A stretch of DNA of 64,000 nucleotides from an uncultured Thermotogaceae bacterium (GTDB taxonomy: Bacteria; Thermotogota; Thermotogae; MWEM01), in contig CAZMHO010000001.1 in NCBI GenBank assembly GCA_964566085.1, positions 3,887 to 67,886 on the forward strand. Reading direction: 5' to 3'. This document shows positions 707-60,146 of this stretch, piece after piece. Within the stretch, counting starts at the first letter, position 1; each line of letters opens with the position of its first letter. The position numbers were made by a program, and so were the translations under genes. A model generated the notes under the pieces. That model had not been told where the DNA came from. It made no database searches and saw only the letters and a program-made list of their open reading frames with translations.

Positions 707-708
707 AG

Positions 709-1788
709 ATGGAATGGAAACCGGCTAAGATCAGCGTCATCCTCCCCATTTACAAAGCGGAACGCACACTCGAACGCTGTCTCGACAGCGTGATCGGGCA
801 AACCTACGCAAATCTCGAGATGATTCTCGTCGATGACGGTTCTCCGGATCGTTGCCCAGAGATTTGCGACAGGTACGCGCAAAAAGACGATCGTATCCGT
901 GTCGTCCATCAAACAAACGCGGGAGTCGGCGCGGCAAGAAACACCGGGATGTTCCGAATGACAGGAGATTACCTGTTTTTTGTCGATGCGGATGATTTTA
1001 TCATTCCGGACGCGATTGCGACGTTATCCGCCCAAGCCGCGAGGACCGAAGCGGATATCACGATCGGCAATGTCTGTGAATCCCGCGGAGGCAATCATTT
1101 CAAGAACGCCCCTTCTTTCTCGCGCGAGAAGATTGCGGCGGATGAGCATACCCTCCCGCAAGTGCGCTATGAACTCTTCTATGATCCTGGTTATGGAGTG
1201 ACCGTCTGGAACAAACTATACCGGACCGATCTTTTGCGGAAATACCGGATTGTCTTTGAGGAACAGTTCACGTTTTGCGAAGACCGCTTATTCAACACGC
1301 GGTGCTTTATCCGTCACCCCCACATCCAATTGGTAAACGCGTACACTTACTACTATTGCACGGAAGCCTCAACGATCACGAGATCAAAGATTCAAACCCC
1401 CATTGAGAAGAGCATAAAGACGGTTCATGATATTCGAGGTTATCTTGTGTCGAATCACGTTTTGGATAAGAACAAAGTTCTATTGGCGTGTTTTGTTTCC
1501 GGGCGAACAAACAAATTCGCTCGAAATTTTTCGATTCATAGCGAGCACGCTTTCCGGGAAATTCGGGAGTTTTTAGTCGCGTACAAAAAAAACGGAATCG
1601 TTACGCGATATCTCGGCGAAATCAGTTCGGGAAAGCATTTGGATGGCGCTAATCGAGAATCGTGGAAACGGTATGCGAGACACATATCGGGGTTATTGAG
1701 CCGAGGCGCTTACACGGCCGCGACGTCCATCTTGTTGCTTCGTTTCAAGACGCAAGAGAGGGGTAAAAACCGAACTGGGCCCAACTAA
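709..1788 (+). CDS. Family 2 glycosyltransferase
   Basis: The N-terminus ISVILPIYKAERTLERCLDSVIGQTY...ILVDDGSPD...FVDADD is the classic GT-A GT2 signature with a DxD motif. An RBS-like GAGAGATG precedes the start. Confidence 0.75.
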   Translation: MEWKPAKISVILPIYKAERTLERCLDSVIGQTYANLEMILVDDGSPDRCPEICDRYAQKDDRIRVVHQTNAGVGAARNTGMFRMTGDYLFFVDADDFIIPDAIATLSAQAARTEADITIGNVCESRGGNHFKNAPSFSREKIAADEHTLPQVRYELFYDPGYGVTVWNKLYRTDLLRKYRIVFEEQFTFCEDRLFNTRCFIRHPHIQLVNAYTYYYCTEASTITRSKIQTPIEKSIKTVHDIRGYLVSNHVLDKNKVLLACFVSGRTNKFARNFSIHSEHAFREIREFLVAYKKNGIVTRYLGEISSGKHLDGANRESWKRYARHISGLLSRGAYTAATSILLLRFKTQERGKNRTGPN

Positions 1789-6941: not shown

Positions 6942-7624
6942 GCTTTCTCACCCGCCTGAACCGCTTTTAACGCTTCGGCTCTCTTTTTCTCCGCTTTCCT
7001 TCTTTCGATCCCGATCCAGTTAAAGAGCGCAAGTAAAAGACCCAGCGTTATGAAAGCGCCGGGAGGAAGGATCACAAGGAAAATTCGAAAGGCTTCTCCC
7101 CAAACGGTCACGCCGAAGACCGTTCCATTACCCAACAGTTCTCGGATCGATCCGACGAGTACTAACGCGCCGATGAATCCGATACCGTTTCCGATGCCAT
7201 CCAAAACGGAGTCGGCGACTTTGTTCTTGCTGGCGAACTGCTCCGCGCGCGCCATAATGATGCAGTTGACGACGATCAGCGGAATAAAGATACCGAGCGT
7301 TTTCCAAAGTTCGTAGGTGAAGGCATGCATCAATAGATCGATGATCGTGACAAAGCCGGCGATGATGATGACAAAAACGGGAATCCGGATTTTATCTGGG
7401 ATCCATTTCCTTACCAGGGATAACATAACATTTGACATCACTAAAACGAAGAGCGTGGCGACGCCCATTCCCAACCCGTTTATCGCGCTGGTCGTCGTCG
7501 CCAGCGTCGGACACATGCCGATTACTTGGATAAAGACCGGATTGTTCGCTATAACGCCGTCGGTGAAGACAGAAAAGTCAACGGTTTTTTTTCGCGGCGC
7601 GGAATTCAACGTTTTGTCTGCCAT
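6938..7624 (-). CDS. rnfE: Rnf complex subunit E
   Basis: ANNPVFIQVIGMCPTLATT is the RnfE/NqrD signature. Probable start is MADKT (ATG overlapping the rnfG stop as TAATG). Confidence 0.85.
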   Translation of the reverse strand: MADKTLNSAPRKKTVDFSVFTDGVIANNPVFIQVIGMCPTLATTTSAINGLGMGVATLFVLVMSNVMLSLVRKWIPDKIRIPVFVIIIAGFVTIIDLLMHAFTYELWKTLGIFIPLIVVNCIIMARAEQFASKNKVADSVLDGIGNGIGFIGALVLVGSIRELLGNGTVFGVTVWGEAFRIFLVILPPGAFITLGLLLALFNWIGIERRKAEKKRAEALKAVQAGEKA

Positions 7625-8340
7625 TATTCGACACCCCATTCTGCGTTTAGGTACTCGGTCATTGTATTAATCGCGTTCGCTACGGCGCGGGGCGTGATGG
7701 TTGCGCCGGTCATCAGATCGCTAACATAGACGACCCCGTCTTTTTTTGACCCGATTATCGCCTCTGGAGAAGATAGGGAACCGATTCCCGCGTCTTTATC
7801 CACTTTCAGCCCCTTGATCAGACTATCGGAAGAAAAGTCGAAGAACCGTTCTTTAACTCTTTGTTCGGAGATTTTCGCGCCTAAGCCTGGCGTCTCTTGT
7901 GAATAGTCCATGACCTCTAATCGGAAAAGATCAAATCCATCCCCCTCTTTTATAAAAGACGCCAGGATCTTCACGTTACCCCCGTATCCGGAAGCCGCGC
8001 CGGATACAATCGCGATCTCCTTGCCCTCGTTTGAAAGGATATGGTAGATCGGATTATAGATGAGCCCTTTCCAATCGGAAGAGGAAAACATCGTTTCCTT
8101 ATCGGTCTTTCGCCAAACCAATTTTTGCAACTGGGCTGTCGATGTCGGGATTTCCGGTTCCGGAACGATGTATTGCCCCGTGTCCGGATCGGTTAAAACC
8201 GTTTTCATCGCTCTCAACTGGTTGCTCAGATCGGCTTTTTCTATAGGAGCTTTCGTCAGTACGTAGATACCGGCTAACAGCACGCCAACGACCAGCGTAA
8301 AGGCCATCAACGTGAGACCGGTTTTGACGTAGTTACCCAT
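7624..8340 (-). CDS. rnfG: Rnf complex subunit G (FMN-binding)
   Basis: An N-terminal TM anchor and a SGATITPRAV-type covalent-FMN threonine motif (TGATITPRAV). Confidence 0.8.
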   Translation of the reverse strand: MGNYVKTGLTLMAFTLVVGVLLAGIYVLTKAPIEKADLSNQLRAMKTVLTDPDTGQYIVPEPEIPTSTAQLQKLVWRKTDKETMFSSSDWKGLIYNPIYHILSNEGKEIAIVSGAASGYGGNVKILASFIKEGDGFDLFRLEVMDYSQETPGLGAKISEQRVKERFFDFSSDSLIKGLKVDKDAGIGSLSSPEAIIGSKKDGVVYVSDLMTGATITPRAVANAINTMTEYLNAEWGVE

Positions 8341-9319
8341 TCTTCTTCACCTCCGGAGCGACGTAACCAAAAGGTTTCGGTCTGGAAATCCTGTCAATCA
8401 ACGGTTTGCATGCGTTCATGATGAGTATGGAAAAAGATACGCCTTCGGGCAGAGCGCCAAAAAACCGGATGAGCATCGTTATGATCCCACACCCGATCCC
8501 GTAGATGAAAGCGCCTTTCATCGTAGCGGGGGAAGTGACCATGTCGGTGGCCATAAACAGCGCGCCGAGGATAAGCCCTCCGCCTAACAGGTGGAAAACT
8601 GGAGAACCGAATTGGCTCGGGTTGATCAGGAAGAATAAGAAAGAGAAGAGCAAAACCGTTCCGATGTACGCAATCGGAATGATCGGATTCACGCGTTTTC
8701 TCCACAAAAGAAAGGCGAAACCGATGATTAACGCCAAAGCGCTGACTTCTCCCAGGCAGCCCTGTGTGTTCCCGATGAACATATCCAGCAATGACACCTG
8801 TTTGGCAGCTTCTTCAAAGCCTCTCTGTTTAAGGATACTCAGTGGCGTCGCGGAGGTAATCACCGTGGATACGGCGTTGTTCAGCGGAGCCCAAACCGAC
8901 ATCTGAACGGGAAAAGAGATAACAAGGAAGACGCGCCCGATGAGCGCCGGGTTGAAGGGGTTGTTTCCGATACCGCCATAGGTATGCTTCGCGATTCCGA
9001 TCGCCACGAGAACGCCGATGATCAGCAAGTACCAGGGAAAGGAAGCGCTGACGTTCATCGCCAGTAACAAACCGGTCACCGCGGCGCTGCCGTCCGGGCG
9101 GAAGTCCGTTTTTTTTCTCAAAAACCGCATAATCCCGTACTCTATCAGCTCTGCGCTTAACGCCCCGATCACACAGAGCCACAAAGCGTTCCACCCGAAG
9201 GCGTATACGGCGAAGACGACGGCTGGGATCAGAGCGATTAAAACGTCTCGCATGATTTTCGGAACCGTATCTTTGACGCGAATATGAGGCGCAGGAGAAG
9301 TGCTCAGAAACGTGGCCAT
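8333..9319 (-). CDS. rnfD: Rnf complex subunit D
   Basis: NqrB/RnfD-like polytopic membrane protein with an FMN-binding motif (GGG...ATDMVTSP). Start taken at MATFL (ATGA overlap with the rnfC stop). Confidence 0.85.
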   Translation of the reverse strand: MATFLSTSPAPHIRVKDTVPKIMRDVLIALIPAVVFAVYAFGWNALWLCVIGALSAELIEYGIMRFLRKKTDFRPDGSAAVTGLLLAMNVSASFPWYLLIIGVLVAIGIAKHTYGGIGNNPFNPALIGRVFLVISFPVQMSVWAPLNNAVSTVITSATPLSILKQRGFEEAAKQVSLLDMFIGNTQGCLGEVSALALIIGFAFLLWRKRVNPIIPIAYIGTVLLFSFLFFLINPSQFGSPVFHLLGGGLILGALFMATDMVTSPATMKGAFIYGIGCGIITMLIRFFGALPEGVSFSILIMNACKPLIDRISRPKPFGYVAPEVKKNG

Positions 9320-10647
9320 TATTTCTTCCCTCCCTTTAACGTGGCATGGAGTTTTTTCGCCAGTTTGAAATGCTTCACGTGTTCGATCTTCGACGGGCAG
9401 ACGTATGCGCAGCTTCCGCATTCGCAACAATTGAGCACCCCTTGCTCATAAGCCTCGTCGAACTTCTTGGCTTTGACCAGTTTCACCAGGCGATTCGGCT
9501 CCAGCCTGAGCGAGCAGGCCATAATACACCTTCCGCAATTGATACACGTCATCTCTTTGATCTCTGACACCATCTTCCCGGGTAGGGCCAGGATGCCGGA
9601 AGTCCCTTTCATCACCGGAATTGTTAAGTCCTTAACGGGAATACCCATCATCGGTCCTCCGAGAATCACCTTCCCGCCCCCTTCTTTTAGTCCGCCCGCG
9701 AGATCGATAATGCTTTGGATCGGGGTGCCGATTCGGACCCAATAGTTCCCAGGATGAGAGATTCCTTCCCCTGTGATCGTGAGGCCGCGTTCATAAAGCG
9801 GTTTCCCTTTCACAACCGCTTCATAGATCGCGTAAGCGGTCGCGACGTTATGGACGATTACTCCGATATGAATCGGGAATCCGCCGACTGGAACCTTTCG
9901 TCGAGTGATCGCATAGACCAGTTGTTTTTCTCCGCCTTGGGGGTATTTGGTTTTCAACAGGACCGGTTCGATCCGATCATTTTGGAACTTCTTTAGGGAT
10001 TCATAGGCTTCGATTTTATTGTCTTCGATTCCGATATACCCTTTTTGCGCGCCACAGACTTTCAAAAGGATTTCAAGACCGGCGACGACCTCTGCCGCGC
10101 GCTCGAGCATCAACCGGCCGTCGATTGTGAGGTAAGGCTCGCATTCCGCACCATTGAGGATGACATAATCGACGGCCTTCTTCATGGCTTCGACATATTT
10201 GAAGTGAGAAGGGAAGGTCGCGCCCCCCAATCCGACGATTCCGGCTTCTTTGATGCGTTCATACAAAAGCGTTTGGCTTTTTTCTTTATCGTAAGCCCTC
10301 CAATCGGTCAGAGGTTTGAGAAAATCGATTTGGTCCGTTTCGCTTTCGATAACGAACAATTCTTCAGGTTTCTGAGTGATCGGGTGCATCACCTTTTTGA
10401 TATCCGAGACAATACCCGTTACGGGCGAATGAAGCGGTACAGAGATAGGGTCCTGCGCTTCGGCGATCTTTTGTCCCGTTTTTACCGAATCGCCTTTTTT
10501 CACCAAAGCGGCGGGGGGTTTTCCGGTGTTTTGGTTAACGAACAGGTAAATGGTTTTCGGAACTGAAATTTCTTGAATAGGCTGGTTTTTCGCCAATTCT
10601 TTACGTTCAGGAGGATGTATTCCTCCGCTGAAAGATAGAATTGCCAA
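9319..10647 (-). CDS. rnfC: Rnf complex subunit C (NADH-binding, 2x[4Fe-4S])
   Basis: Two CxxCxxCxxxCP ferredoxin motifs (CINCGRCIMAC, CCECGSCAYVCP) and a SLBB/NADH-binding N-terminal region. Confidence 0.85.
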   Translation of the reverse strand: MAILSFSGGIHPPERKELAKNQPIQEISVPKTIYLFVNQNTGKPPAALVKKGDSVKTGQKIAEAQDPISVPLHSPVTGIVSDIKKVMHPITQKPEELFVIESETDQIDFLKPLTDWRAYDKEKSQTLLYERIKEAGIVGLGGATFPSHFKYVEAMKKAVDYVILNGAECEPYLTIDGRLMLERAAEVVAGLEILLKVCGAQKGYIGIEDNKIEAYESLKKFQNDRIEPVLLKTKYPQGGEKQLVYAITRRKVPVGGFPIHIGVIVHNVATAYAIYEAVVKGKPLYERGLTITGEGISHPGNYWVRIGTPIQSIIDLAGGLKEGGGKVILGGPMMGIPVKDLTIPVMKGTSGILALPGKMVSEIKEMTCINCGRCIMACSLRLEPNRLVKLVKAKKFDEAYEQGVLNCCECGSCAYVCPSKIEHVKHFKLAKKLHATLKGGKK

Positions 10648-10669: not shown

Positions 10670-11695
10670 CTATTTCAAGAATTTGCTTGTGAATGAATGG
10701 ACCATTATCTGGTATTTCTCCAAATTGAAAGCGGTAAACTCGGCATTATGGCTTTGGAAATCGATTTTTTTAAGCTCCGACAGTGCTCCCCAAACTTCCA
10801 TGCGATTGAAATCGCTATAAAAGGCCCGGTACGTTTTAAAATCCCGCAAAAACGCCTTCGCCTTGAAACTCGAGCGCGTGACAAAGGGTATCCCGAAATA
10901 CGAAGCCACGATGACTCCGTGCAGTCGTTCCGTGATGATGAGCGAACACGAGGCGATATCATCGATCAACTGGCCCCCTGCCGTTTGCGGAATGCGCACA
11001 GTAAAATACTTGGACAGAGCCGAAGCGTTCTGTTCCGCCAGTCTCAACTCTTCTTTGGGAAAGGAAACAAGCAGGTCGATCGCCTTGAACCCCTCGATCC
11101 TTAACGGTTCGATGAATTCCTCGATCGCTTTGACCGGGTATTTGAGCATCATACCGATCTTTTGAGGGTTTGCTCGGATTTTCTCTCGGCTGGAAAGAAT
11201 ACCGTAAGCCAAATCGGATCCTCTGGAATGACGGCTCGAAAAATGGGCTGCGTACCGAGCGGAAACGGCATCCCGAAAGTAACCGGTGCAGAGGGGGTGC
11301 GCCAATAGCTTCCGAATACGGCGATAATGAGACTGGCTGTGGATACCACCGATCCCATGCCCGAGCAGATAAACGGGTTTTCTATACCGAAATGCCGTCG
11401 AGACTAGAAAATCATAGTAAGAAAAGCTCTTCCCGCTGCTCTCGTCTTGAAATATCCCGCCTCCCCCGCCGATCACGATGTCACACGCCTTTAGGGCATG
11501 TAGGATGCTTAATAGCGAATTTCTTGGGATTTGTTTGATTCTTAATCCGAATACTTTACGAGAGCCTTTTTGAGGGAACAGCATATCGATGCGATCAACG
11601 GGAAGATCTTTTAGAAGCTTTTGCGCGCTTCTCAACAAGAGTTCGTCCCCGAAGTTCTCAAACCCGTAGTAACCGAATAAAAATACCCGAACCAA
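10670..11695 (-). CDS. Polysaccharide pyruvyl transferase (CsaB-like)
   Basis: YYGFENFGDELLL at the N-terminus and GGGGIFQD are PS_pyruv_trans motifs. TTG start with a strong RBS GAGGGGGAG. Confidence 0.6.
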   Translation of the reverse strand: MVRVFLFGYYGFENFGDELLLRSAQKLLKDLPVDRIDMLFPQKGSRKVFGLRIKQIPRNSLLSILHALKACDIVIGGGGGIFQDESSGKSFSYYDFLVSTAFRYRKPVYLLGHGIGGIHSQSHYRRIRKLLAHPLCTGYFRDAVSARYAAHFSSRHSRGSDLAYGILSSREKIRANPQKIGMMLKYPVKAIEEFIEPLRIEGFKAIDLLVSFPKEELRLAEQNASALSKYFTVRIPQTAGGQLIDDIASCSLIITERLHGVIVASYFGIPFVTRSSFKAKAFLRDFKTYRAFYSDFNRMEVWGALSELKKIDFQSHNAEFTAFNLEKYQIMVHSFTSKFLK

Positions 11696-19423: not shown

Positions 19424-19455
19424 ATAAAAAAACGCCCGAAAGGGCGTTTTTTTTT
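19424..19455. terminator. Bidirectional intrinsic terminator
   Basis: A7-AACGCCC-GAAA-GGGCGTT-T9 serves the flagellar operon (+) and tRNA-Ser (-). Confidence 0.7.
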
Positions 19456-19543
19456 GGCGGAGAGAGTGGGATTTGAACCCACGTACGGGGTTAGCGTAAC
19501 ACACTCTCCAGGCGTGCGCCTTAGACCGCTCGGCCATCTCTCC
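19455..19543 (-). tRNA. tRNA-Ser (anticodon GGA), CCA encoded
   Basis: Minus-strand GGAGAGATGGCCGAGCGGTCTAAGGCGCACGCCTGGAGAGTGTG…GTGGGTTCAAATCCCACTCTCTCCGCCA. Anticodon loop CT-GGA-GA, long variable arm, T-arm GGTTCAAATCC. Confidence 0.85.
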
Positions 19544-45166: not shown

Positions 45167-47422
45167 TCACTGGACGATATGAATCTTCCAGTTCTCCGCT
45201 TCAGTTTGGTTTTCCGTTGTGCAGTTCTTCTCCGTTTGGGTTATCGTAAAGTAAGTCCGAAAGGACGTCGTCGCCCCGAATGAGGTTGCGGGGATGAGGC
45301 CGGTGCGGAATAAAACCTTTCCGTCGTACCGATAAACCTCCTCCAACGGATAGGATGTGGCGCCGGTCTGACCTTCTACGGTCACTTCGCCGATTAATAC
45401 CACACCCGGACGCCATTCTTCCACTTCCGATTCGATAATCACGTAATGAGTCGGGGAGATGTAAAGCTCATTGCCGGGGGGTACTTGAAGGAGGCCGTTT
45501 CCGCGGTGATCTGTAATGATCAGGTTTCTCCCTCTCATAATCGGTAAGAGAAACCCGTAGTTGAAATCGACCGGTTCTTCCTTTCCAAGAAGCAATACCC
45601 GAGCGCCTATCTGTTTAGAGGCGTCCGAAACCCGCACAGGAAGATAGCAGCGGATGGAACTTTCGTCTTCGAAACAGAGGCCGCCTTTTTCCGCTATCGT
45701 CTGCTCGGTCAAGTATTCTTCGCCGAGGACCATCCAAAAACGGTCGATCGCTTCCCGGTCGAGAAATCCAAAATTGATCGTTGCGCCAGAAGAATCCAAA
45801 GGTCTATCCGGCTGGTATGAGCCGTTTACGACGTTTCCGCCTCGATCCAACTTGAGCAACTGTTTGGCGGGGAGTTGATCGACGCTCATCAATCGGTTCA
45901 GAAATGCGGTCCAACCCGTTTCTTGCGCAAAAGCCAAGCGATCGTATTTATCTTTTCCGTAAACATTCCACAACCCGCCTTTTACCGAGAGCGGATACCA
46001 GAAGCTTAATCCTTTCATCTGAGCGGTATTCTTTTTTCCCATTTTCTTTCCATTTTCAAGGATATCTTCACAGAAACCGTAATGATCATTCCGAAGTACG
46101 GCTTCCCGTAATCGCTCCTCCGCTTCGCTGATGAACCCCAATAGCTGCTGAAGCATCGGCTCTTGAAGATCGTAGACGTACCCTTCTTCTCTGCTTTTGA
46201 CTTTATAGTTGTCGGTGAAGAGCGAACCGTTCAAACAGTTTTTCAAGACGGTCAACCAGGAATGTGCATCCTTGTAGTCACAGTAATCGAAGGCCAGCGT
46301 ATTCCAGTCCAGCGTAAAACCCAGGTCTTTTTTTACCGCTTCTTTCAAGAAAGCTTCGGTCAGGAGCAATGTAAGCTGATCGAAGACCTTCTTTAACGAT
46401 AGACTGAGAGACTCAAGCCGATACATTTCGATCACGGAACACCCCATCCCTTTTTGCTCCTGGATTAGGTCTTCCTCCATTCCCGCCATGGCGGCGCAGA
46501 AAAAGTCATAAGACTCTTCGGCAAAGGTCATGACATCCGGAGTGGGAAGGTTCTTCAGACACGAGAATAGCAGACCCAGTTCTGGGTAGCCGGTAGGGCT
46601 CAAGCCCTCGAATACGACAGCGGTGTCGAAATGGTCTTTCACTTGGAAGAGGTTTTCAAGCAACCCGCCGTAGGAGCCCGCAGACAGAAGCAAATCCATC
46701 TTTCTGCCTTCCAGCATCCCGTCGAATTCTAAAATAGAGGTCGTTTGGTCATAGAAAACATCTTCCGGATAAGTACCCCGGGCATCCAAGCGCCATCCGT
46801 GCGCGTCATCGATGAGGTATAAAACCATATTTTCGGACGGAAAGGCTTTCGAAGTAACTTCTAAAGCTTTTTTTACGCCTTCCGAAAAGTCAGGAGCGAA
46901 GGGACGATAGAAGGGGCGAACCGTATCTTCGGCAAGGTAATAACTCTCGAAATTTCCGGAGTCATTTTTTTGCATAAAGACCATCTCGATCGAATGGATC
47001 GGCGCGAAGTAAACGGCTAACTCCGCTTCCGTCATCGGATCGGAAAAAGAAAGCACGGTCAGATTCCAAGGCCGATCATCGAAGGGAACAACTTCCAGCG
47101 GAAGCTCCTTAAAGAAGCCGGCGTTGGCCGTAAACGTTCCTTCGTATGAGAAAGCGAGGTAATGAGGCTCAGCGTACTCGGCTTTTATTCCCCAGTCGCC
47201 GACCGACAACCCTTCCAGGCGAAAAAAACCCTCGCTATCCGTCAGCGACTCTTTGCGCACTTCCGGACTCGCGAGATTCCAAGCCGTTACGATGATATTC
47301 GGAACCGACTCTCCCAAGAGGCTAACTTTACCTTCTAAGGTGTAAAGAGAGATTACCGTACAATTTGTTAATGAAAACACGAACATCAGGACAAGGAAAA
47401 CTCCACCGATCAGTCTTTTCAT
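45167..47422 (-). CDS. Large lipoprotein (751 aa) with an N-terminal CarbopepD_reg-like domain and a possible clostripain (C11)-like peptidase core
   Basis: A lipobox (…FSLTNC), a GKVSLLG…SEGFFRLEGL beta-sandwich, and LYLIDDAHGW (His) and YDFFCAAMAG (Cys) resembling the C11 catalytic dyad contexts. The family assignment is tentative. Confidence 0.3.
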   Translation of the reverse strand: MKRLIGGVFLVLMFVFSLTNCTVISLYTLEGKVSLLGESVPNIIVTAWNLASPEVRKESLTDSEGFFRLEGLSVGDWGIKAEYAEPHYLAFSYEGTFTANAGFFKELPLEVVPFDDRPWNLTVLSFSDPMTEAELAVYFAPIHSIEMVFMQKNDSGNFESYYLAEDTVRPFYRPFAPDFSEGVKKALEVTSKAFPSENMVLYLIDDAHGWRLDARGTYPEDVFYDQTTSILEFDGMLEGRKMDLLLSAGSYGGLLENLFQVKDHFDTAVVFEGLSPTGYPELGLLFSCLKNLPTPDVMTFAEESYDFFCAAMAGMEEDLIQEQKGMGCSVIEMYRLESLSLSLKKVFDQLTLLLTEAFLKEAVKKDLGFTLDWNTLAFDYCDYKDAHSWLTVLKNCLNGSLFTDNYKVKSREEGYVYDLQEPMLQQLLGFISEAEERLREAVLRNDHYGFCEDILENGKKMGKKNTAQMKGLSFWYPLSVKGGLWNVYGKDKYDRLAFAQETGWTAFLNRLMSVDQLPAKQLLKLDRGGNVVNGSYQPDRPLDSSGATINFGFLDREAIDRFWMVLGEEYLTEQTIAEKGGLCFEDESSIRCYLPVRVSDASKQIGARVLLLGKEEPVDFNYGFLLPIMRGRNLIITDHRGNGLLQVPPGNELYISPTHYVIIESEVEEWRPGVVLIGEVTVEGQTGATSYPLEEVYRYDGKVLFRTGLIPATSFGATTSFRTYFTITQTEKNCTTENQTEAENWKIHIVQ

Positions 47423-47463: not shown

Positions 47464-48552
47464 TCAAAAAAATATAATTTTGTTGTGATCTCCGGCAATA
47501 ATCTGCATACCGCCGGCATCAGGATAAGTCGCGCTCCATTCAAAATCGCTACCGATAATACTCTCTTTCATTCTGACCGACAGATTGCTCAGACGCACTC
47601 TGTCCATGAGTATGCTGTTTTCTAGCTCGATATGTTCCAGCGCGCAGTCATTACCGATAGCGCAATAAGGTCCGACATAGACGTTTTGAAGTCGCGCGTT
47701 GTTTCCGATCACCGTCGGCCCTTCTATTCGGCAATTTGAAAAGGCGCAGTTCTCGCCCACGGAGACGTCTTCCCCTAAAAAGCTATGCTCAAGTTCTATC
47801 TGACCTGCTTTTTCTATGGGTTTGGAGGAGAGAATCCGGCGATTTGCGTCCAAAAGATCCGGCACTTTCCCGGTATCCTTCCACCAACCCTTTAGGAAAT
47901 GATAGTTCACGACATGCCCTTCCGTTATCAGCATGGATATGGCGTCGGTAATCTCGTATTCACCGCGCCAAGAGGGTTTTAACCGGCGGATGACATCAAA
48001 GACGTGCGAATCAAAAAAATACAAACCCAGCACGGCGTTGCGGCTTTCCGGTTCTTTCGGTTTCTCCACGAGGCGAACGATCCGCTCGTTTTGAAGCGTC
48101 GCGACTCCGAAAGCCCGCGGGTCTTCAACTTCCTTCAACAAGAGGGTAGCTTGCGCCTGCGTGCTTAAAAAAAGCGATTTCATCGTTTCGAGATTTTCCT
48201 CCAGCAGATTGTCGCCCAAGTATAGTAGAAACTTTTCACCTGCTGCCCAACCCTCGCAAAGGCTCAGGGCGTGGGCTATCCCTTTTGCGTTTTCCTGTAA
48301 AACATAGGTGATGCGCACTCCAAAGGCGCTCCCGTCTTTCAGCGTCTGTTCAAAAATATTCCGATTATAATGGTTGACGACCAAGCAAACCTCTTTGATG
48401 CCACCGCTTTTAACCGCGTCGATGACATAGGCGATGAGGATTCGGTTCGCCAGCGGGAGGAGCTGCTTCGGGCGACTAAAGGTGAACGGTTTCAACCGGG
48501 TGCCTTCCCCGCCACACAGAATGATCGCTTTCGTAAAACCCACTCCTTTCAC
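47464..48552 (-). CDS. Sugar-phosphate nucleotidyltransferase with a C-terminal left-handed beta-helix (bifunctional GlmU/RmlA-like)
   Basis: AIILCGGEGTRLKPFT…KQLLP (nucleotidyltransferase G-loop) and hexapeptide repeats at the C-terminus. Confidence 0.7.
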   Translation of the reverse strand: MKGVGFTKAIILCGGEGTRLKPFTFSRPKQLLPLANRILIAYVIDAVKSGGIKEVCLVVNHYNRNIFEQTLKDGSAFGVRITYVLQENAKGIAHALSLCEGWAAGEKFLLYLGDNLLEENLETMKSLFLSTQAQATLLLKEVEDPRAFGVATLQNERIVRLVEKPKEPESRNAVLGLYFFDSHVFDVIRRLKPSWRGEYEITDAISMLITEGHVVNYHFLKGWWKDTGKVPDLLDANRRILSSKPIEKAGQIELEHSFLGEDVSVGENCAFSNCRIEGPTVIGNNARLQNVYVGPYCAIGNDCALEHIELENSILMDRVRLSNLSVRMKESIIGSDFEWSATYPDAGGMQIIAGDHNKIIFF

Positions 48553-53164: not shown

Positions 53165-53548
53165 ATGCGTTTCTGGAGCCTTTTGCTTGTATTCTTTCTC
53201 TTGGCCGTTTTTGCCGGGGCATGGACAACGGACCTTAAAGAGATAAAAACGCGATACACTCAAGAACAGATTGTCGAGTCGTTTGAAAAGGCCCGGCGGC
53301 ACGAATGGCTTGAAGAGTATCAGGAGAAAGACAACGCAATCTACCTTCTTACGAGCAAATTCAAGTACCGGACCCGGCTTCTTGACGACCAAACCCTTGT
53401 CTTCGACCAAGTTCAAAGCCGTTACGACTATGATATGCAATTCCCTTTTTGGACGATCATACTCTTGTTCATCATATCGGGGGCGGTTTTGATACTCATT
53501 TTCTTCCTGCCTTCTGATTTCAAGTTTAGAAAGAGAAAATCGCGATGA
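53165..53548 (+). CDS. Small bitopic membrane protein (127 aa)
   Basis: An N-terminal signal/anchor (MRFWSLLLVFFLLAVFAGA), a C-terminal TM, and a basic tail (FRKRKSR). Lies directly upstream of the export-protein gene. Confidence 0.35.
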   Translation: MRFWSLLLVFFLLAVFAGAWTTDLKEIKTRYTQEQIVESFEKARRHEWLEEYQEKDNAIYLLTSKFKYRTRLLDDQTLVFDQVQSRYDYDMQFPFWTIILLFIISGAVLILIFFLPSDFKFRKRKSR

Positions 53549-53606
53549 ATCAGCAGTAAAACCGTAAGACAATCGAAAGCGATTCGTGATAAAAGAGGAG
53601 AACCTT

Positions 53607-56429
53607 ATGAATAAGAGGCTTTTGGTTAGCATGTGTTTCTTCGCCATCTTTCTTTCGATTTCTGTAGGTCAGTATGCGCTCAAGCCTGGAGACCAGATCG
53701 AGGTGTACAATTATACCTACCCGGAACTCAATCAACCGGCTTTGGTGGGAAAGGATGGCTTTATCCAGCTAAAGCTGATCGGCTCTGTGAAAGCGGAGGG
53801 TATGAGCTTGGAAGAGCTGGCTGCGTTCACGAAGAGCAAACTGACGCCGTTCGCGCCGGAATCCCGGGTGACGATCCTATTGACGCAAATCTACCCGGTC
53901 AAGGCCTATATTATCGGCGAAGTGAACCAAGCGACGATTATCGATTTGACATATGAAGAGAACCCGACCCTTCTGCAGGCATTGAGTTTTTGCGGCGGAG
54001 TGAAGACGTCGGCCGATTTGAAAAATATCCTCCTTCGGCACGAGGATGGCTCCTTCGATACCGTCGATATTTCCGGAACGCTCGAATTCGGTCTTTGCGA
54101 GGACATAATCGCGATTCGCCCCGGGGATGTCATCGTGGTTCCCAGAAAATACGAACGTCGGGTTTATGTGTTCGGAAGTCTGGAGCAATCGGGAGTCATC
54201 TATTTTGAAGAAAAGGAACCGATGGTTTTGGAGGTTCTGTTATCCAAGGTTAAGTACGATCTGCGCACTTCGGAACCCACGATCTCTTTGATTCGCGACG
54301 GATACGAAACGCCCTTAACGCTTGAGGGTACCCGTTCCGTCGTAAAAAAAACCGAACTCCGAAGCAACGATATTTTGCTGATCCGTAAACTGCAGCCGAA
54401 GTATTTGTACGTGACCGGTCTATCGACCGCGAGCCGTATTGATTTCGAAAGAGAGGAAGAGATGACGCTGCAAACGTTGTTCGGAAAATTGGGGTTTGCG
54501 CCGCTCTCCGCTCTGGAGATTCGCATCACTCCGGCAAATGGGCAAGCAAGGACGTTATCTATCAACCGTTCGATACCGGTTTATCGATTCGGATCGGGAG
54601 ATATCGTCGAGTTTCCCCCTCAGAACTACGTTTACGTGAGTGGAAACGTAAGCAAAACAGGAAAGATAGATTTCTCCTACTCAGAACCGTTTACCTTGGA
54701 AACGCTTCTGGCTCTAGTGGGAGTGGGCGAAGAAGAAAGCGTCCAACTGACGGTGATCAATCCTGACGGCCGTCGTTTTCTATACCAATATCCCGAACGG
54801 AGAGAGACGCTCACACCCCTCGAACGAGGCGCTTTCGTTCAGTTCCCGTACAAACGGTACGTCTTTCTGGCCGGTTCGATTTCCGAAGGCAACGAGCGGC
54901 AACTGTATTTTCCGAACGAAGAAGAGATGACATTAAAACGCGCCTTAGCCAAAGCAAGCATCGATCTGTCCCAAAACAACTACGGCGTCACGGTGATCCG
55001 CAGTCAGGACCAATACCCGTTCGATCTGAAAAGCGCCCTTCTCTCCGAGGGGAATTTTTTGTTGGAAACGGGCGATATCCTGTTTTTTGAGAAAGAGACC
55101 GATCGGTACGTTCATCTCGTCGTTTCCGAAGGCGATAGCCGAAAGTTGCATTTCGCGCCCGAAGACCCTTTAGACCTATTCACCGTTCTCGTCAAATATG
55201 AGAAAACGGGGGAACTGACCGGTGATCAGATCAAGATCATCGATCCGTCTGGCCGCATTTTTTTGAGTTCGGTCAAAGCGGTTTTGAATCAGGAGGAAAA
55301 CTACTCCCTGTCTCCCAAAAGCCTTGTCGTAATCAACGCTAACGAACGGCGCGTTTTTGTCTTAGGAAACGTGGAGCATAGCGGAGAGATACTCTTCGGT
55401 CAAGACGAACCCTTTACCTTGACCACGCTCGTCGCCAAATGCAACCCCATCCTGAACGAAAAAACCGAGAACATCCTGGTTAAGCGTCGCGCCGGCGTAA
55501 CTGTTTTGGATCTTCAGGATGTCTTGGACGTTTCAACGGTATTCGCGTTGGAAAAAGACGCGGTCGTGTACTTTAAACCGTACGAACCAAAAGTCGTGAC
55601 GATCTTCGGACAGGTAAAAATCCCCGGACTTTTATCCTTCGGCAAACTTGAACCGCTGAATCTGATGACCGTTTTGTCTAAGGCCGGAGGGTTGCTTTCC
55701 GATGCCAGCCAACGCATCAAAGTGGTCGGGGCTGACGGCAAAAGCACTATCTATAACCTGATTTCTGAACCGAATCCGGAAAGGCTCTCGATCGCTCCCG
55801 GCAGTTATGTTGTGGTAGAGAACAATCAGGGGCAGTATATCGCCATTTTGGGAGACGTGAAGAACCCGGGGCTTCATTACCTAAAAAAAGACGAACTCTC
55901 GCTATTGGAATTGCTGAGCGCGCAAGGGGGGGTCAGCGATTGGACCCTAAACACGACATTGGAACTTACCCGCTCGTCGGGAGAGAAAGAGCTCATAAAT
56001 ATCGATCTGGACCCCTCGTCGCTAAACAAGACGAAGGTACGGCCGGGAGATACGGTTTTCGTATACCCGAGCAGCCGCTTGAAAGTCTACGTGTTCGGAG
56101 CCGTGGTGAATCCGGGCATCGTCCCCTATCGATCGAAGATGACGCTATTAGAGTCTTTGCTCTATTGTAGAGGGCCTTCTTCTTCCGCATACATGAAGAA
56201 AATTATGGTCTTCCCCGGGGGTGTCGACGCGAATCCGATCCTGTTGGACTATTCCGGATTCAGGAACGAGCGAGGCGTCGCAGACTACTTCCTGGAGCCG
56301 GGAGACGTCGTTTACGTGCCCCAAAACGCATTAGTGGAGATTAAAGATGTCGCCGGATTTCTGGGTACCATGCTGACGCTCGTGAATTCTGGGTTCACGT
56401 TAATGGATAAGCTGCAAAATTTACCGTAA
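53607..56429 (+). CDS. Wza/KpsD-like polysaccharide export protein with about 10 tandem SLBB (beta-grasp) repeats
   Basis: An N-terminal signal peptide plus a Poly_export (PES) motif LKPGDQIEV…DGFIQLKLIGSVKAEG. Repeated about 85-aa units of the form [RK]xYVxGxVxxxGxxxFxxxEPxTLxxLLxxxGG recur about 10 times. The ATG at 53607 has a strong RBS AGAGGAG; the track ORF begins at a GTG inside that RBS. Confidence 0.7.
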   Translation: MNKRLLVSMCFFAIFLSISVGQYALKPGDQIEVYNYTYPELNQPALVGKDGFIQLKLIGSVKAEGMSLEELAAFTKSKLTPFAPESRVTILLTQIYPVKAYIIGEVNQATIIDLTYEENPTLLQALSFCGGVKTSADLKNILLRHEDGSFDTVDISGTLEFGLCEDIIAIRPGDVIVVPRKYERRVYVFGSLEQSGVIYFEEKEPMVLEVLLSKVKYDLRTSEPTISLIRDGYETPLTLEGTRSVVKKTELRSNDILLIRKLQPKYLYVTGLSTASRIDFEREEEMTLQTLFGKLGFAPLSALEIRITPANGQARTLSINRSIPVYRFGSGDIVEFPPQNYVYVSGNVSKTGKIDFSYSEPFTLETLLALVGVGEEESVQLTVINPDGRRFLYQYPERRETLTPLERGAFVQFPYKRYVFLAGSISEGNERQLYFPNEEEMTLKRALAKASIDLSQNNYGVTVIRSQDQYPFDLKSALLSEGNFLLETGDILFFEKETDRYVHLVVSEGDSRKLHFAPEDPLDLFTVLVKYEKTGELTGDQIKIIDPSGRIFLSSVKAVLNQEENYSLSPKSLVVINANERRVFVLGNVEHSGEILFGQDEPFTLTTLVAKCNPILNEKTENILVKRRAGVTVLDLQDVLDVSTVFALEKDAVVYFKPYEPKVVTIFGQVKIPGLLSFGKLEPLNLMTVLSKAGGLLSDASQRIKVVGADGKSTIYNLISEPNPERLSIAPGSYVVVENNQGQYIAILGDVKNPGLHYLKKDELSLLELLSAQGGVSDWTLNTTLELTRSSGEKELINIDLDPSSLNKTKVRPGDTVFVYPSSRLKVYVFGAVVNPGIVPYRSKMTLLESLLYCRGPSSSAYMKKIMVFPGGVDANPILLDYSGFRNERGVADYFLEPGDVVYVPQNALVEIKDVAGFLGTMLTLVNSGFTLMDKLQNLP

Positions 56430-56453
56430 AAGCCGAAAAAATGGGGGGATTTC

Positions 56454-58622
56454 GTGCCTTCGTCCGAGCGCGATGAGATCTACGAAAAAGAACCGAACGA
56501 GTTAACGATAAACGATCTGTTCCGCATGTTCAAAAGGCGGATTGTGTGGTTTTTACTCGTCGTGGTCCTTACCGTTATCGCCACGATCCTCTATGCCTTC
56601 ATCTCTCCGCGGGTCTACGAGTCGAGCGTGACGATAAAACTGTCGGCCGCCTCTTCTTCCGGCATCTCTGGTTTCTTGCAGGATCTTCCTTTTGGAATCG
56701 GCGGATCTTCGAGCGGTGGCAGCATTTTAACGGAGATAGAGATGATCACGAGCAAAGGCAACATCGAAAAGGTGATCCGAAATATCGGTTTGTTGGATAT
56801 TCTGATACCGGCGGAGAAAAGAAAACCTGGAGAAGCGGAGCAGGCAATGTTCTCGCGCGCCGTAAGCGCCTTGGCGGAACAGATCAGCGTGAACCCGGTT
56901 AAGAACACCAATATCGTCAAGATTACCGTTGCCTTATCAGAAGGGGATCTCGCAGCGCGTATCGCCAATGAGTTGGCTTCGGTATACAACGAAAGTTTGT
57001 ACGATATCAACAAAACGCAAGCGAATGAAAAGCTGTCGTTCATTGAGAAGCAGCTGCCTGTGAGTAAAGCCGCTCTTGACTTCTCTATACGGAAGGTGAG
57101 AGAGTATAAGGAAGCGAAACAGATCTTTCTGATATCCGAAGAAGCGAAGGCTTTGTTAGAGGTAATCGCGGACTTCGACAAGCAGTTGAATGCAAAAAAA
57201 ATGGAATTGCGAACGACTCAGGCAGGGATTGCGGCGATCCGGGAAAAACTCTCCGCAACAAACGAAAAATTGATCTCCTCGGAAACGATCACGATCAATC
57301 CGCTTGTCAGCGAATTGCGGAGCAAGTTAACGAATCTGAATATCGAATTGGCCGCTTTGGAGAAACTCTATCCGGCCACCGATCCTCGAGTTCTACAAAA
57401 AAGGAAGTCGATCGAAGAGACTCAGAAAGAGCTATCGAAACAAGTCGTCAATATTGTCACGTCTCAGCAAAAAACAGACAACCCGATTTACGCGACGCTT
57501 ATGGGAGAGTTGGTCATGAAAGAGATCGACTATCAACTCTACGCCGCGACGATTGAAGCTATTGAAAATACCCGCAAGGAATACGACCAAAAAATGAGAC
57601 AGCTCCCCGCTCTCGAGCAGGAACTCACCGAGCTGCTCCGAGAGGAGAGCATCAACGAGCAGGTCTATGTCGCCCTCTACAAGAGTTATATCGACGCCCA
57701 GATTTCCGAAGCCGGGATCGTCAACCAAACCTATATCGTGGACGCAGCGGAACCCCCTTTGAATGCCGCGAAACCTCAAAAAAAACTCATCGTGGCGATA
57801 GGCGGGGTTTTGGGAGTATTCCTGGGCATCCTGTTCGTATTCGTTCTCGAATACCTTGAAAAACGGATTATGGATACCGAGGAGCTCGCGAAGATGACGG
57901 GGGACGCGGTCCCGATCTTCGGCTTTTTCCCGAAAACCAAAACCGGCCTTCTTCCGATTAATCCCCAGAATCCCGATCGCCTCCTCTCCGAAGCGGCTGA
58001 GACAGCCTATACGCGATTCCATTTAAGAAAACATGAACGCCCTTCGAAAGTTATCGCGATTACGAGTTCCGAGAGCAACACCGGGAGTTCTACACTTGCC
58101 TTCTACCTTGCGCAAACAATTGCTCGAAGCAGGGAACGCGTTCTCCTGATCGACGGGGCGCTACGATATACCAACCTCACGAAACGCATCGGATTGCCGA
58201 ATCACCAGACCGGCTTTTCTCAAGCCATTTCGGAGGGCTTCTCCGAACGGGTTCCTGTGGTTTCGCTACAACCTTATCTGGACTTTCTGCCGGCCGGAAA
58301 GCACGACGCGCATCCGTTGGCCCTGTTCCGAGGAAAACGGTTTGAAGAGTGGATAACCGCCATGGCGAAAGAATACGATCGAATTCTCATCGATACGCCG
58401 GCGATGAACCGGGATGTGGATACGTCCATGCTTATCGCGAGAACGGAAGGCGTTTTTTTGGTGGTCACGATTGGAAAAACCGGGAAACGCGCTTTTAGAA
58501 AGGCGCTGAACGATATTGGTTACGCGCAAATCCCTTTGTTGGGCCTTTTGGTCAATAAATGCCAAATCGGTAAAGATTTCTCCCTTCGAAAAAATGAAAA
58601 TCGATCCGAGATTCAAGCCTAA
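56454..58622 (+). CDS. Wzc/GumC-like polysaccharide co-polymerase with a degenerate BY-kinase-like ATPase domain
   Basis: A Wzz N-terminal TM, a long coiled-coil periplasmic region, a second TM (LIVAIGGVLGVFLGILFVFVL), then a CapB-like domain. The Walker A position reads ITSSESNTGSST (no Lys) and there is no C-terminal Tyr cluster. Confidence 0.65.
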   Translation: MPSSERDEIYEKEPNELTINDLFRMFKRRIVWFLLVVVLTVIATILYAFISPRVYESSVTIKLSAASSSGISGFLQDLPFGIGGSSSGGSILTEIEMITSKGNIEKVIRNIGLLDILIPAEKRKPGEAEQAMFSRAVSALAEQISVNPVKNTNIVKITVALSEGDLAARIANELASVYNESLYDINKTQANEKLSFIEKQLPVSKAALDFSIRKVREYKEAKQIFLISEEAKALLEVIADFDKQLNAKKMELRTTQAGIAAIREKLSATNEKLISSETITINPLVSELRSKLTNLNIELAALEKLYPATDPRVLQKRKSIEETQKELSKQVVNIVTSQQKTDNPIYATLMGELVMKEIDYQLYAATIEAIENTRKEYDQKMRQLPALEQELTELLREESINEQVYVALYKSYIDAQISEAGIVNQTYIVDAAEPPLNAAKPQKKLIVAIGGVLGVFLGILFVFVLEYLEKRIMDTEELAKMTGDAVPIFGFFPKTKTGLLPINPQNPDRLLSEAAETAYTRFHLRKHERPSKVIAITSSESNTGSSTLAFYLAQTIARSRERVLLIDGALRYTNLTKRIGLPNHQTGFSQAISEGFSERVPVVSLQPYLDFLPAGKHDAHPLALFRGKRFEEWITAMAKEYDRILIDTPAMNRDVDTSMLIARTEGVFLVVTIGKTGKRAFRKALNDIGYAQIPLLGLLVNKCQIGKDFSLRKNENRSEIQA

Positions 58623-58631
58623 AGGTTTCCG

Positions 58632-60146
58632 ATGAAAGCGATCATCCTTGACGGTTATGTGGACGAACCGGCGCTGTTTGGAGTCCCTCCGTTCGTTTCC
58701 ACGTACGTTCGATACGCCTGGGGCGCGTATCGTCATTTCGGAGTAGATCCAGAGTATTGGACAATCGACCAGATCAGGAAAGAGAACTCATGGGACGACC
58801 TCAATCAGGCCGATCATTTGGTGATCATCGGAGGCGTCAGCGTTCCAGGGAAGTACGCGGGAGGCGCGCCGCTTTCTTTCAACGAGCTCTCTAAGATCGC
58901 CGAAGGCTGCCCCGCTCCGCTGAAGATTCTATTCGGTGCTTTCACCTACCGTACTGAATCCGAAAAACGCAAAAACGAAAGGAAATCCGGAAAGTCCCGG
59001 ACAACTCAGAATAACCCTCTGAGAGCTATCGAATGCATCGTATCAGGAAACCTCGAGACCTATCTGTACTATCTTCTATCGGGTAAGAACCCGCCCGAGG
59101 ATATCGGAAAAGAGACGGATAAAACCGAACTGTGCGCCTTGGCCGGCGCGGGGTTAGTCAACCGGCATCCGAACTATCCGAATCTCATCTGCGAGCTCGA
59201 AGTGTCTTCCGGTTGCGAACGACGGTCTCATTGCAGTTTTTGTAGCGAACCCCTCTTTCATAAGCGCTTCTCGTCGCGAGACCCGGAAGCGTTGTTATCG
59301 GAAGCGGCTGCTTTGGGAGAACATGGGGTGAAACACTTTCGTTTGGGTCGTACAGCCAATATAAGCGCCTATGGCGAACGCGGCGACGGTCCCGATCCCG
59401 TGGCCCTGCGCAGAGTTTATCAAGGGTTTCGAGAACGGGTGCCCGGTCTGCGCACCTTGCATACTGACAACGCCAATCCCCAATACATCGCCGAGCACCC
59501 GACCGAGTCCGCCAAGATCCTCGAGACGATTGCGGAGTATAACACGTCCGGCGACATCCTGTCTTTCGGTGTCGAGTCTTTCGACGAAACCGTCATCCGT
59601 TCCAATAACCTTGGTACGCGGGTGGAAACGATCTATCAAGCCATCAAATTGGTCAACGAGATCGGGGGGCTCCGAAAAGAAGGGGTTCCAGCGCTCCTTC
59701 CGGGAATTAACCTCATCGCCGGATTGATCGGCGAGACGAAAAGTACTTTTTCGAAGAACCTCGAAGCGTTGAAGACGATCGTGGGAAACGGATGGCTCTT
59801 ACGCCGCATCAACCTCCGGCAGGTGATGGTTTTTCCAGAGACCCCTTTATGGATTTACCGTCAGTCCCATTACCTCCCTTTTCATCACTTGGAGTTCCAG
59901 CATTTCAAAGAGAAGGTCCGGAAGGAAATCGACCGCCCGATGCTTCAACAGGTCTTCCCGGCCGGAACGGTCATTCGGGACGTCGTGATGGAGTACCACG
60001 AAGGCAATAACACTTTCGGAAGGCCCTTGTGGACCTACGGGATCTTGATCGGTATCCGGGAAAGGCTTCCTATCGGCGAAAAGGTATCCGTTATCGTTAC
60101 AGAACACGGCTATCGATCGCTCACAGGCCAAAAGATTCCCGCTTAA
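58632..60146 (+). CDS. Radical-SAM-like Fe-S enzyme with an N-terminal Rossmann/B12-binding-like domain and a non-canonical Cys motif
   Basis: SSGCERRSHCSFCSE (C-x5-C-x2-C, not CxxxCxxC), with a TIM-barrel-length body. The N-terminal ~110 aa (KAIILDGYVDEP…LVIIGGVS) resemble flavodoxin/B12-binding folds. Confidence 0.55.
   Translation: MKAIILDGYVDEPALFGVPPFVSTYVRYAWGAYRHFGVDPEYWTIDQIRKENSWDDLNQADHLVIIGGVSVPGKYAGGAPLSFNELSKIAEGCPAPLKILFGAFTYRTESEKRKNERKSGKSRTTQNNPLRAIECIVSGNLETYLYYLLSGKNPPEDIGKETDKTELCALAGAGLVNRHPNYPNLICELEVSSGCERRSHCSFCSEPLFHKRFSSRDPEALLSEAAALGEHGVKHFRLGRTANISAYGERGDGPDPVALRRVYQGFRERVPGLRTLHTDNANPQYIAEHPTESAKILETIAEYNTSGDILSFGVESFDETVIRSNNLGTRVETIYQAIKLVNEIGGLRKEGVPALLPGINLIAGLIGETKSTFSKNLEALKTIVGNGWLLRRINLRQVMVFPETPLWIYRQSHYLPFHHLEFQHFKEKVRKEIDRPMLQQVFPAGTVIRDVVMEYHEGNNTFGRPLWTYGILIGIRERLPIGEKVSVIVTEHGYRSLTGQKIPA

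Follow-up and report, generated by a model that had tools for sequence, protein, structure and literature searches.

How does a Wzc-type polysaccharide co-polymerase (PCP) operate when the bacterial tyrosine kinase (BY-kinase) domain fused to it has lost its catalytic residues? The question is raised by one gene (Table 1) on a stretch of 64,000 nucleotides from an uncultured Thermotogaceae bacterium (GTDB lineage Bacteria; Thermotogota; Thermotogae; MWEM01; GenBank assembly GCA_964566085.1, contig CAZMHO010000001.1), which as a whole is called the window in the following. A preliminary description of this DNA had proposed a Wzc-like co-polymerase with a lysine-less Walker A motif and without a tyrosine cluster, and had predicted a pseudokinase. 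According to our analysis the protein probably represents a fused BY-pseudokinase scaffold in a phosphorylation-independent PCP-2, and the loss of the catalytic residues is accompanied by the absence of a phosphatase gene which adjoins the co-polymerase gene in all lysine-retaining relatives examined.

The identity of the protein was established initially. The 722 amino acids are encoded by an open reading frame (ORF) that begins with GTG and has a Shine-Dalgarno sequence, GGGGGGA, 4 nt before it. Pfam matches comprise Wzz (residues 15-110), GNVR (387-464) and a P-loop region (532-702), and two hydrophobic helices flank the periplasmic part, which can be aligned with Wzc and PslE. In the underlying sequence search of the PDB, Wzc was the best match (E 1e-31, full-length), followed by CapAB, VpsO, BceF and Etk. 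The AlphaFold model of residues 481-722 reached a pLDDT of 88 and a pTM of 0.87, with the last 15 residues disordered, and the top 50 PDB structures retrieved with it by Foldseek were exclusively BY-kinase domains (TM-scores 0.73-0.82), namely of CapA2B2, Wzc, BceF and Etk. The structural traits of a PCP-2a, two transmembrane (TM) helices around a periplasmic Wzz/GNVR part and a fused C-terminal BY-kinase-fold domain, are thus present. A PCP-2a cooperates with an OPX (Wza-like) protein, mostly encoded by a neighboring gene, and such a gene precedes the ORF here at a distance of 24 bp. Because of the Pfam domains, the TM helices, the best match to Wzc and the restriction of the structural matches to BY-kinases, the protein is a Wzc-type PCP-2a co-polymerase, and the BY-kinase fold assigned to its C-terminal domain by the preliminary description is corroborated. 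The best NCBIfam models point in the same direction (chain-length-determinant and Wzc/Etk/eps_fam), all of them below the curated cut-offs: TIGR01007, the tyrosine-autokinase domain, was matched with 90.1 bits at a cut-off of 108.05 and the Wzc equivalog model with 124 at a cut-off of 1068.

Within the P-loop region, Pfam reported AAA_31, CBP_BcsQ, ParA and CbiA, all of the MinD/ParA superfamily. A reading as a SIMIBI ATPase of the MinD/ParA/BcsQ type was rejected, since the domain has no KGGxGK[ST] motif and BY-kinases rank far higher in both sequence and fold searches; MinD and FleN appeared in the PDB search with E values of only 1e-4 to 1e-3. The matches to CBP_BcsQ, ParA and CbiA are cross-hits at the level of the superfamily.

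For the assignment of the catalytic motifs the register of the alignment is decisive. HMMER pairs VIAITSSESNTGSSTLAF of the query with VLMISGASPSAG[K540M]TFIS of Wzc, which places S545 at the position of the Walker A lysine and S546 at that of the Mg-binding Ser/Thr, and separate MAFFT alignments, one with 32 and one with 18 relatives, gave the identical register. No lysine or arginine occurs between residues 533 and 557. A canonical GKS/T in a shifted register was considered and rejected: a scan for GK[ST] and [AG]xxxxGx[ST] over the full length of the protein yielded a sole GKT (674-676), located 27 residues past the Walker B aspartate, and relatives with a true P-loop carry AGKT, SEKT, EKT or NKT at the same position. 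The replacement of the lysine in GSST, as noted in the preliminary description, was therefore verified, and the strings VLLIDGALR and ILIDTP (644-649) quoted there were found in the protein.

Altogether six hallmarks are altered in this register, namely the ExxRxxR O-motif, Walker A, Walker A', the PPNP loop, the last proline of Walker B and the tyrosine cluster (Table 1). The O-motif is already variant in the canonical Thermotogota relatives (ExxKxxx). These relatives end in six to ten consecutive tyrosines; in the window protein the last tyrosine is Y690 and the final 32 residues contain none, so that the missing tyrosine-rich tail was correctly described before. Retained are G544, S546, T547, D567, R571 and D647, most of them invariant across the clade. 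Two properties by which BY pseudokinases are recognized (PMC12004946), structural homology to BY-kinases and the lack of both the catalytic residues and a Tyr-rich tail, are found here; to a third, a need for the protein in polysaccharide synthesis or export by way of protein-protein contacts, purifying selection on the domain lends indirect support. Of the features on which BYKdb bases a BY-kinase, Walker A, Walker A', the Tyr cluster, ExxRxxR and the curated family score are all wanting.

A total of 33 relatives was collected by a word-indexed search. The five nearest (100, 85, 78, 64, and 42% identity) all possess G[ST]ST and a broken Walker A' and are devoid of a Tyr cluster. In the next tier, with 34-42% identity, P0006, P0007 and P0011-P0013 (including Marinitoga) exhibit GK[ST], DxDxR, D[TL]PP and a poly-Tyr tail. 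In a neighbor-joining tree the five lysine-less lineages form a single clade (bootstrap 100), which is sister to the canonical Thermotogota PCP-BY-kinases (bootstrap 93). The monophyly and this sister position indicate one loss from a functional ancestor, as far as can be judged from the sequences. Sequencing errors can be excluded, because the lysine-less motif is identical in dozens of independent NCBI, JGI, ENA, and Logan assemblies of uncultured Thermotogota. The lysine-less clade has very few members, as among 1.84 billion representatives at 50% identity the domain was matched at E ≤1e-30 by the window's own cluster only; the next one was P0005 with 6e-25.

Despite the broken motifs the domain is maintained. 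The P-loop of the clade was remodeled to the consensus S-x-E-x-x-x-G-[ST]-S-T, and all five lineages share S538-x-E540-x-x-x-G544-x-S546-T547, D567 and D647 without change, down to 42% identity; the canonical Thermotogota relatives have a glycine in place of E540. The clade likewise retains the Walker B aspartate without exception, followed by Ala or Ser instead of the final proline. The reading frame is intact and the domain shares 31-81% identity among the five lineages. By the method of Nei and Gojobori, applied to the window and the loci L001 and L007, the ratio of nonsynonymous to synonymous substitutions (dN/dS) was 0.09-0.11 for the kinase-like domain, 0.04-0.06 for the periplasmic domain and 0.26-0.48 for the C-terminal tail, values that are rough because dS (1.2-1.9) is close to saturation. 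With a dN/dS of about 0.1, the kinase-like domain is kept by purifying selection and does not decay.

The most informative observation outside the gene itself concerns the phosphatase. Among the lysine-retaining relatives, all four examined (L005, L011-L013) carry an adjacent CpsB_CapC gene for a tyrosine phosphatase of the PHP type, and none of the seven loci of the degenerate clade (the window, L001-L004, L006, and L007) does so. Judging by this distribution, catalytic residues, tyrosine tail and phosphatase gene were lost jointly. The window was searched by tblastn with two canonical Thermotogota BY-kinase domains and two CpsB proteins, by a six-frame scan for CX5R[ST] and by Pfam scans of 33 ORFs, and neither a CpsB-like PHP phosphatase nor a signature of low-molecular-weight protein tyrosine phosphatases nor a second BY-kinase domain was detected in the 64 kb. 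In syntenic relatives the 10 kb downstream of the PCP gene are also free of a second BY-kinase or phosphatase, so that the adjacent intact kinase which would have spoken against a pseudokinase did not appear. The earlier statement that no Wzb phosphatase gene is nearby therefore stands for the window, but Wzb is not the type to be expected: in this lineage the CpsB/CapC phosphatase of the PHP type is the relevant one.

Table 1. Features of the co-polymerase locus in the window, with the gene orders of the lysine-retaining relatives (residue numbers refer to the 722-aa protein)
Feature	Position	Strand	Evidence or remark
PCP-2a (Wzc-like) co-polymerase gene with fused domain, probably a BY-pseudokinase	56454..58622	+	ORF; Pfam; Wzc E 1e-31
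TM helix 1, residues 30-50	56541..56603	+	hydropathy scan; inside the Wzz domain match
GNVR domain, residues 387-464, running into TM helix 2	57612..57845	+	Pfam PF13807, 4.6e-15; hydropathy
TM helix 2, residues 445-465	57786-57848	+	hydropathy
Remnant of the ExxRxxR O-motif, EAAETAYTR (513-521), reading ExxExxY	57990..58016	+	alignment with canonical BY-kinases; definition PMC9800525
Cytoplasmic domain with BY-kinase fold, residues ~521-705	58014..58568	+	AlphaFold; Foldseek; dN/dS 0.09-0.11
Degenerate Walker A, SSESNTGSST (538-547); canonical GX5GK[ST]; S545 for the catalytic Lys	58065..58094	+	HMMER; MAFFT
Degenerate Walker A', VLLIDGALR (563-571); canonical hhhhDxDxR; second Asp replaced by Ala	58140..58166	+	alignments
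Loop AGKHDAHPLAL (614-624) in place of G-x-PPNP-x-ELL; PPNP replaced by DAHP	58293..58325	+	alignment
Walker B, RILIDTPA (643-650); canonical hhhhDxxP/DTPP; Asp647 kept, last Pro replaced by Ala	58380..58403	+	alignments
IGKTGK (673-678), sole GK[ST] tripeptide; not a P-loop	58470..58487	+	whole-protein scan; alignment
C-terminal tail (703-722), no Tyr, fast-evolving, disordered in the model	58560..58619	+	alignment; dN/dS 0.26-0.48; pLDDT <50
Partner OPX/Wza-like gene, 947 aa, Poly_export and many SLBB/SLBB_2 repeats	53586..56429	+	Pfam
Spacer between OPX and PCP genes, 24 bp	56430..56453	+	L011 has a 249-aa CpsB/CapC gene at this position
Small membrane protein, 126 aa, before the OPX gene	53168..53548	+	borderline LapA_dom (28.2 bits, cut-off 28)
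Loci L005 and L013, PCPs P0007 and P0006			order CpsB-PCP
Locus L012, PCP P0011 (Marinitoga)			order PCP-CpsB, inside a glycosyltransferase cluster
Locus L011, PCP P0008	CpsB 7218-7967; PCP 8001-10127		order 964-aa OPX, CpsB, PCP, among housekeeping genes

Taken together, the pseudokinase proposed in the preliminary description gains support from four further degraded hallmarks (the O-motif, the PPNP loop, the second aspartate in Walker A' and the proline that closes Walker B), from the loss throughout the clade and from the joint loss of the phosphatase gene. In most BY-kinases tested, mutation of Walker A residues, including the lysine, or of the aspartates of Walker A' reduces or abolishes activity; moreover, the second aspartate of Walker A' was proposed to recognize the substrate tyrosine, and ExxRxxR builds the octameric ring in which trans-phosphorylation takes place (PMC9800525, activity data in Table 2 therein). 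Since Walker A, Walker A', ExxRxxR and the substrate tail are all lost, autophosphorylation of the window protein on tyrosine is very unlikely, and we infer that the domain is catalytically inactive.

In the proposed mechanism the co-polymerase would form the inner-membrane and periplasmic half of a polysaccharide export conduit and would most likely act with the giant multi-SLBB OPX protein encoded directly upstream. Its cytoplasmic domain would keep the BY-kinase fold, with neither a phosphotransfer to tyrosine nor a tyrosine tail as acceptor, and the conserved but dead domain may serve as a cytoplasmic scaffold which holds or organizes the oligomer. Assembly of the oligomer would then not be driven by a kinase/phosphatase cycle like that of Wzc/Wzb or CapB/CapC. 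The scaffold role, the continued oligomerization and the nature of the exported polymer are presumed on these grounds. The conclusion of the preliminary description that regulation must differ from the Wzc/Wzb paradigm is not a new one, as it restates a published model (PMC12004946, PMC4182512).

Several points, beside the rough nature of the dN/dS values, weigh against this interpretation. The exchange K547Q in Wzc of A. baumannii is tabulated as being without effect on kinase activity (PMC9800525), and the structures 9exo, 9i2q, and 9exq of Wzc K540M contain MgADP according to their entry titles. As the window protein still has the aspartate of Walker B as well as the Gly and the Ser/Thr of the P-loop, nucleotide binding is possible. 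With the altered O-motif it is uncertain, judging by the alignment, whether a ring of the Wzc type is formed. Phosphorylation in trans by an intact BY-kinase from another part of the genome is conceivable. Finally, no Wzx, Wzy or glycosyltransferase cluster was seen beside the OPX-PCP pair.

The retained residues lead to an unlikely alternative, in which the domain is a nucleotide-binding switch: binding or slow hydrolysis of ATP/ADP through the P-loop backbone, S546/T547 and D647 of Walker B, and not tyrosine phosphorylation, would drive the oligomeric changes of the co-polymerase. The preservation of G544, S546, T547, D567, R571, and D647, the MgADP in the Wzc K540M structures and the strong selection on the domain fit with such a switch. 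However, the lysine which contacts the beta and gamma phosphates is gone and the basic residues around it are missing, the invariant E540 has entered the P-loop at the glycine of the canonical relatives, and neither the PPNP loop nor the second aspartate in Walker A' was preserved. In a more speculative and rather improbable variant, the P-loop with its invariant Glu, conserved down to 42% identity beside the retained Walker B Asp and Walker A' Arg, may have been rebuilt into a new ligand- or nucleotide-sensing site which replaced tyrosine phosphorylation as the assembly switch and works with the long multi-SLBB OPX. If true, Wzc-type export in a phylum with a toga would here be regulated on a different principle.

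It is highly improbable that the protein is phosphorylated in trans, e.g., on Y641 or Y690, by a BY-kinase and served by a phosphatase encoded elsewhere, or that an active kinase pairs with the dead domain like in eukaryotic pseudokinase/kinase heterodimers. Intact PCP-BY-kinase/CpsB pairs do occur in other Thermotogota and Y641 is invariant in the clade, but the window and the flanks of its syntenic relatives contain neither enzyme, the tyrosine cluster is absent, the O-motif for docking of a neighboring kinase domain is altered and the published data on EcpK oppose a dependence on active BY-kinases (PMC12004946). A functionless, decaying remnant or an artefact of assembly or sequencing, which would explain the lost catalytic motifs and an evolutionary rate about twofold that of the periplasmic domain, is effectively refuted by a dN/dS far from neutral, the intact frame with 31-81% identity in five lineages, the identical motifs in independent assemblies and the confidently predicted fold.

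A fused pseudokinase scaffold, as favored here, has counterparts in known systems. According to Blocher et al. (2025, PMC12004946), a BY pseudokinase has a BY-kinase fold but neither the catalytic residues of the Walker motifs nor a Tyr tail. In that work EcpK was reported to bind the kinase-less PCP EpsV, HfsB/HfsA were discussed as well, and a phosphorylation-independent model was proposed with experimental support for both pairs. The window domain resembles EcpK of M. xanthus and HfsB of C. crescentus in its BY-kinase fold without the catalytic residues of Walker A/A' or a Tyr tail, and for both a scaffold role was proposed. However, these are separate proteins which bind to the C-terminus of the kinase-less EpsV or HfsA, whereas the window domain is fused. 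Furthermore, EcpK has lost several secondary-structure elements, while the window model aligns over ~220-250 columns with Wzc and CapB (TM-scores 0.73-0.82).

Closer in architecture are the fused variants SMc01795 (S. meliloti), Mlr8439 (Mesorhizobium), VV1_2305 (V. vulnificus), and BCETI_6000729 (Brucella ceti), which PMC12004946, in the passage naming them, attributes to Cuthbertson et al. (2009), and PssP2 of R. leguminosarum, a fused PCP without Walker motifs or Y-cluster that alters the chain length of the exopolysaccharide (PMC4182512); PssP of the same species is devoid of the Y-cluster only (PMC4182512). Like these, the window protein is a single polypeptide with a Wzc-like TM/periplasmic part and a kinase-like domain without catalytic Walker residues or Tyr tail, a likeness drawn from their descriptions. 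Unlike PssP2, which lacks all three Walker motifs, it keeps the Walker B Asp and a recognizable P-loop shape. The fused variants and PssP2 are proteobacterial, and the loss in the Thermotogota was most likely independent of theirs, since the nearest relatives are canonical Thermotogota PCP-BY-kinases with 35-42% identity and the proteins of other phyla share 28% identity or less.

With Wzc/Wzb/Wza of E. coli the window system has in common the architecture, an OPX gene next to that of the PCP, the cytoplasmic fold and the aspartate of Walker B. It differs by the absence of the Walker A Lys, DxDxR, ExxRxxR, the Y-cluster and a phosphatase, and by an OPX of 947 aa with many SLBB repeats. The closest systems in sequence are the canonical Thermotogota pairs of PCP-BY-kinase and CpsB/CapC (P0006, P0007, P0011-P0013; L005, L012, and L013), which keep GK[ST], DTPP and the adjacent gene for a PHP-type phosphatase, and most of the canonical relatives also DxDxR and the poly-Tyr tail. 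An exception is P0008, encoded in L011, with GKT and DTPP kept, NLDMR as Walker A' and no tyrosine at its C-terminus; its cluster variant P0069 has one. P0008 could represent an intermediate stage or a kinase that acts on another substrate. In its organization the L011 module resembles that of the window, being a solitary OPX-PCP unit among housekeeping genes with an OPX that is 38% identical over the full length.

BY-pseudokinase co-polymerases, fused and stand-alone, are already recognized, and the window gene adds a further example from an uncultured Thermotogota lineage. Its value lies in a natural experiment within one phylum, where an intact kinase with poly-Tyr tail and CpsB can be set against a sister clade without all three in which the domain was retained. 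The joint loss of catalytic residues, tail and phosphatase gene, with the domain under purifying selection, speaks for the published notion of a structural function of the BY-kinase fold that can be separated from phosphorylation, and the lysine-less clade offers a compact family for probing the function of this fold once catalysis is gone. A probable error of annotation in public databases is exposed as well: the NCBI pipeline names the lysine-less proteins “polysaccharide biosynthesis tyrosine autokinase”, and tyrosine-autokinase or kinase labels on such proteins probably constitute a systematic misannotation. The public labels of P0034-P0060 include “CpsD/CapB family tyrosine-protein kinase” despite the missing lysine and tyrosine cluster.

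Among the nearest 150 representatives, about 7%, fused and stand-alone, are without the lysine (GT[ST] or GS[ST]); BY-kinase-like domains devoid of it thus occur repeatedly in other lineages. P0089, P0156, P0159, P0164, P0174, and P0192, again fused as well as stand-alone, carry GT[ST]/GS[ST] for GK[ST] and often DxNxR for DxDxR, which looks as if unrelated lineages had undergone the loss repeatedly and convergently. A second, separately degraded PCP of the Thermotogota is P0015 from Thermosipho (670 aa), with the P-loop GTFEEKD, the Walker B sequence INLPE, no Walker A' and no Tyr cluster.

Comparison of the flanking sequences relied on L001-L003, syntenic loci of 85% identity, and on L006 and L007 from two close species (79%). 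In all of them and in the window the order is lipoamide dehydrogenase, the 126-aa membrane protein, the 947-aa OPX, PCP, a radical SAM gene, LamB/YcsF and CYTH. The adjacency of OPX and PCP is kept in L001-L004, L006, and L007, down to 40% identity of the OPX proteins in L004, where the PCP is 42% identical and follows the OPX gene after a gap of 22 bp. The OPX subfamily model of NCBIfam matched by the OPX protein of the window is 380 positions long. The long multi-SLBB conduit may be tied to the wide periplasm or toga of the Thermotogota. The 126-aa membrane protein is conserved with 76-80% identity in L006/L007 and is a candidate member of the module only. In a scan of the region 51.5-61.2 kb, promoter and terminator sites were no more numerous than in shuffled sequence.

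The radical SAM gene (58632-60146, +) starts 10 bp past the PCP stop codon. It was dismissed as a functional partner because it follows the PCP gene only in fully syntenic neighborhoods and is absent from this position in L004, L011, L005, and L012, so that its placement is incidental. The encoded protein of 504 aa contains an unusual CX5CX2C-like motif (CERRSHCSFC) and is remote from every NCBIfam model, the best being TIGR04013 with 44 bits at a cut-off of 251.

Glycan-related genes elsewhere in the window (98-1788, +; 10670-11695, -) are confined to an FkbM-type methyltransferase, a left-edge GT2 glycosyltransferase and a polysaccharide pyruvyl transferase; each lies at least 45 kb from the OPX-PCP pair, and no Wzx/Wzy was seen. 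A gene at 45167-47422 (-) encodes a predicted secreted or lipoprotein-like protein of 751 aa, which has no Pfam match, is conserved in L001/L002 and adjoins a sugar-nucleotidyltransferase gene (47464-48552). Moreover, the window contains a tmRNA gene (1926-2277, -) with the tag peptide VEPEFALAA and a gene for tRNA-Ser(GGA) at 19455-19543 (-).

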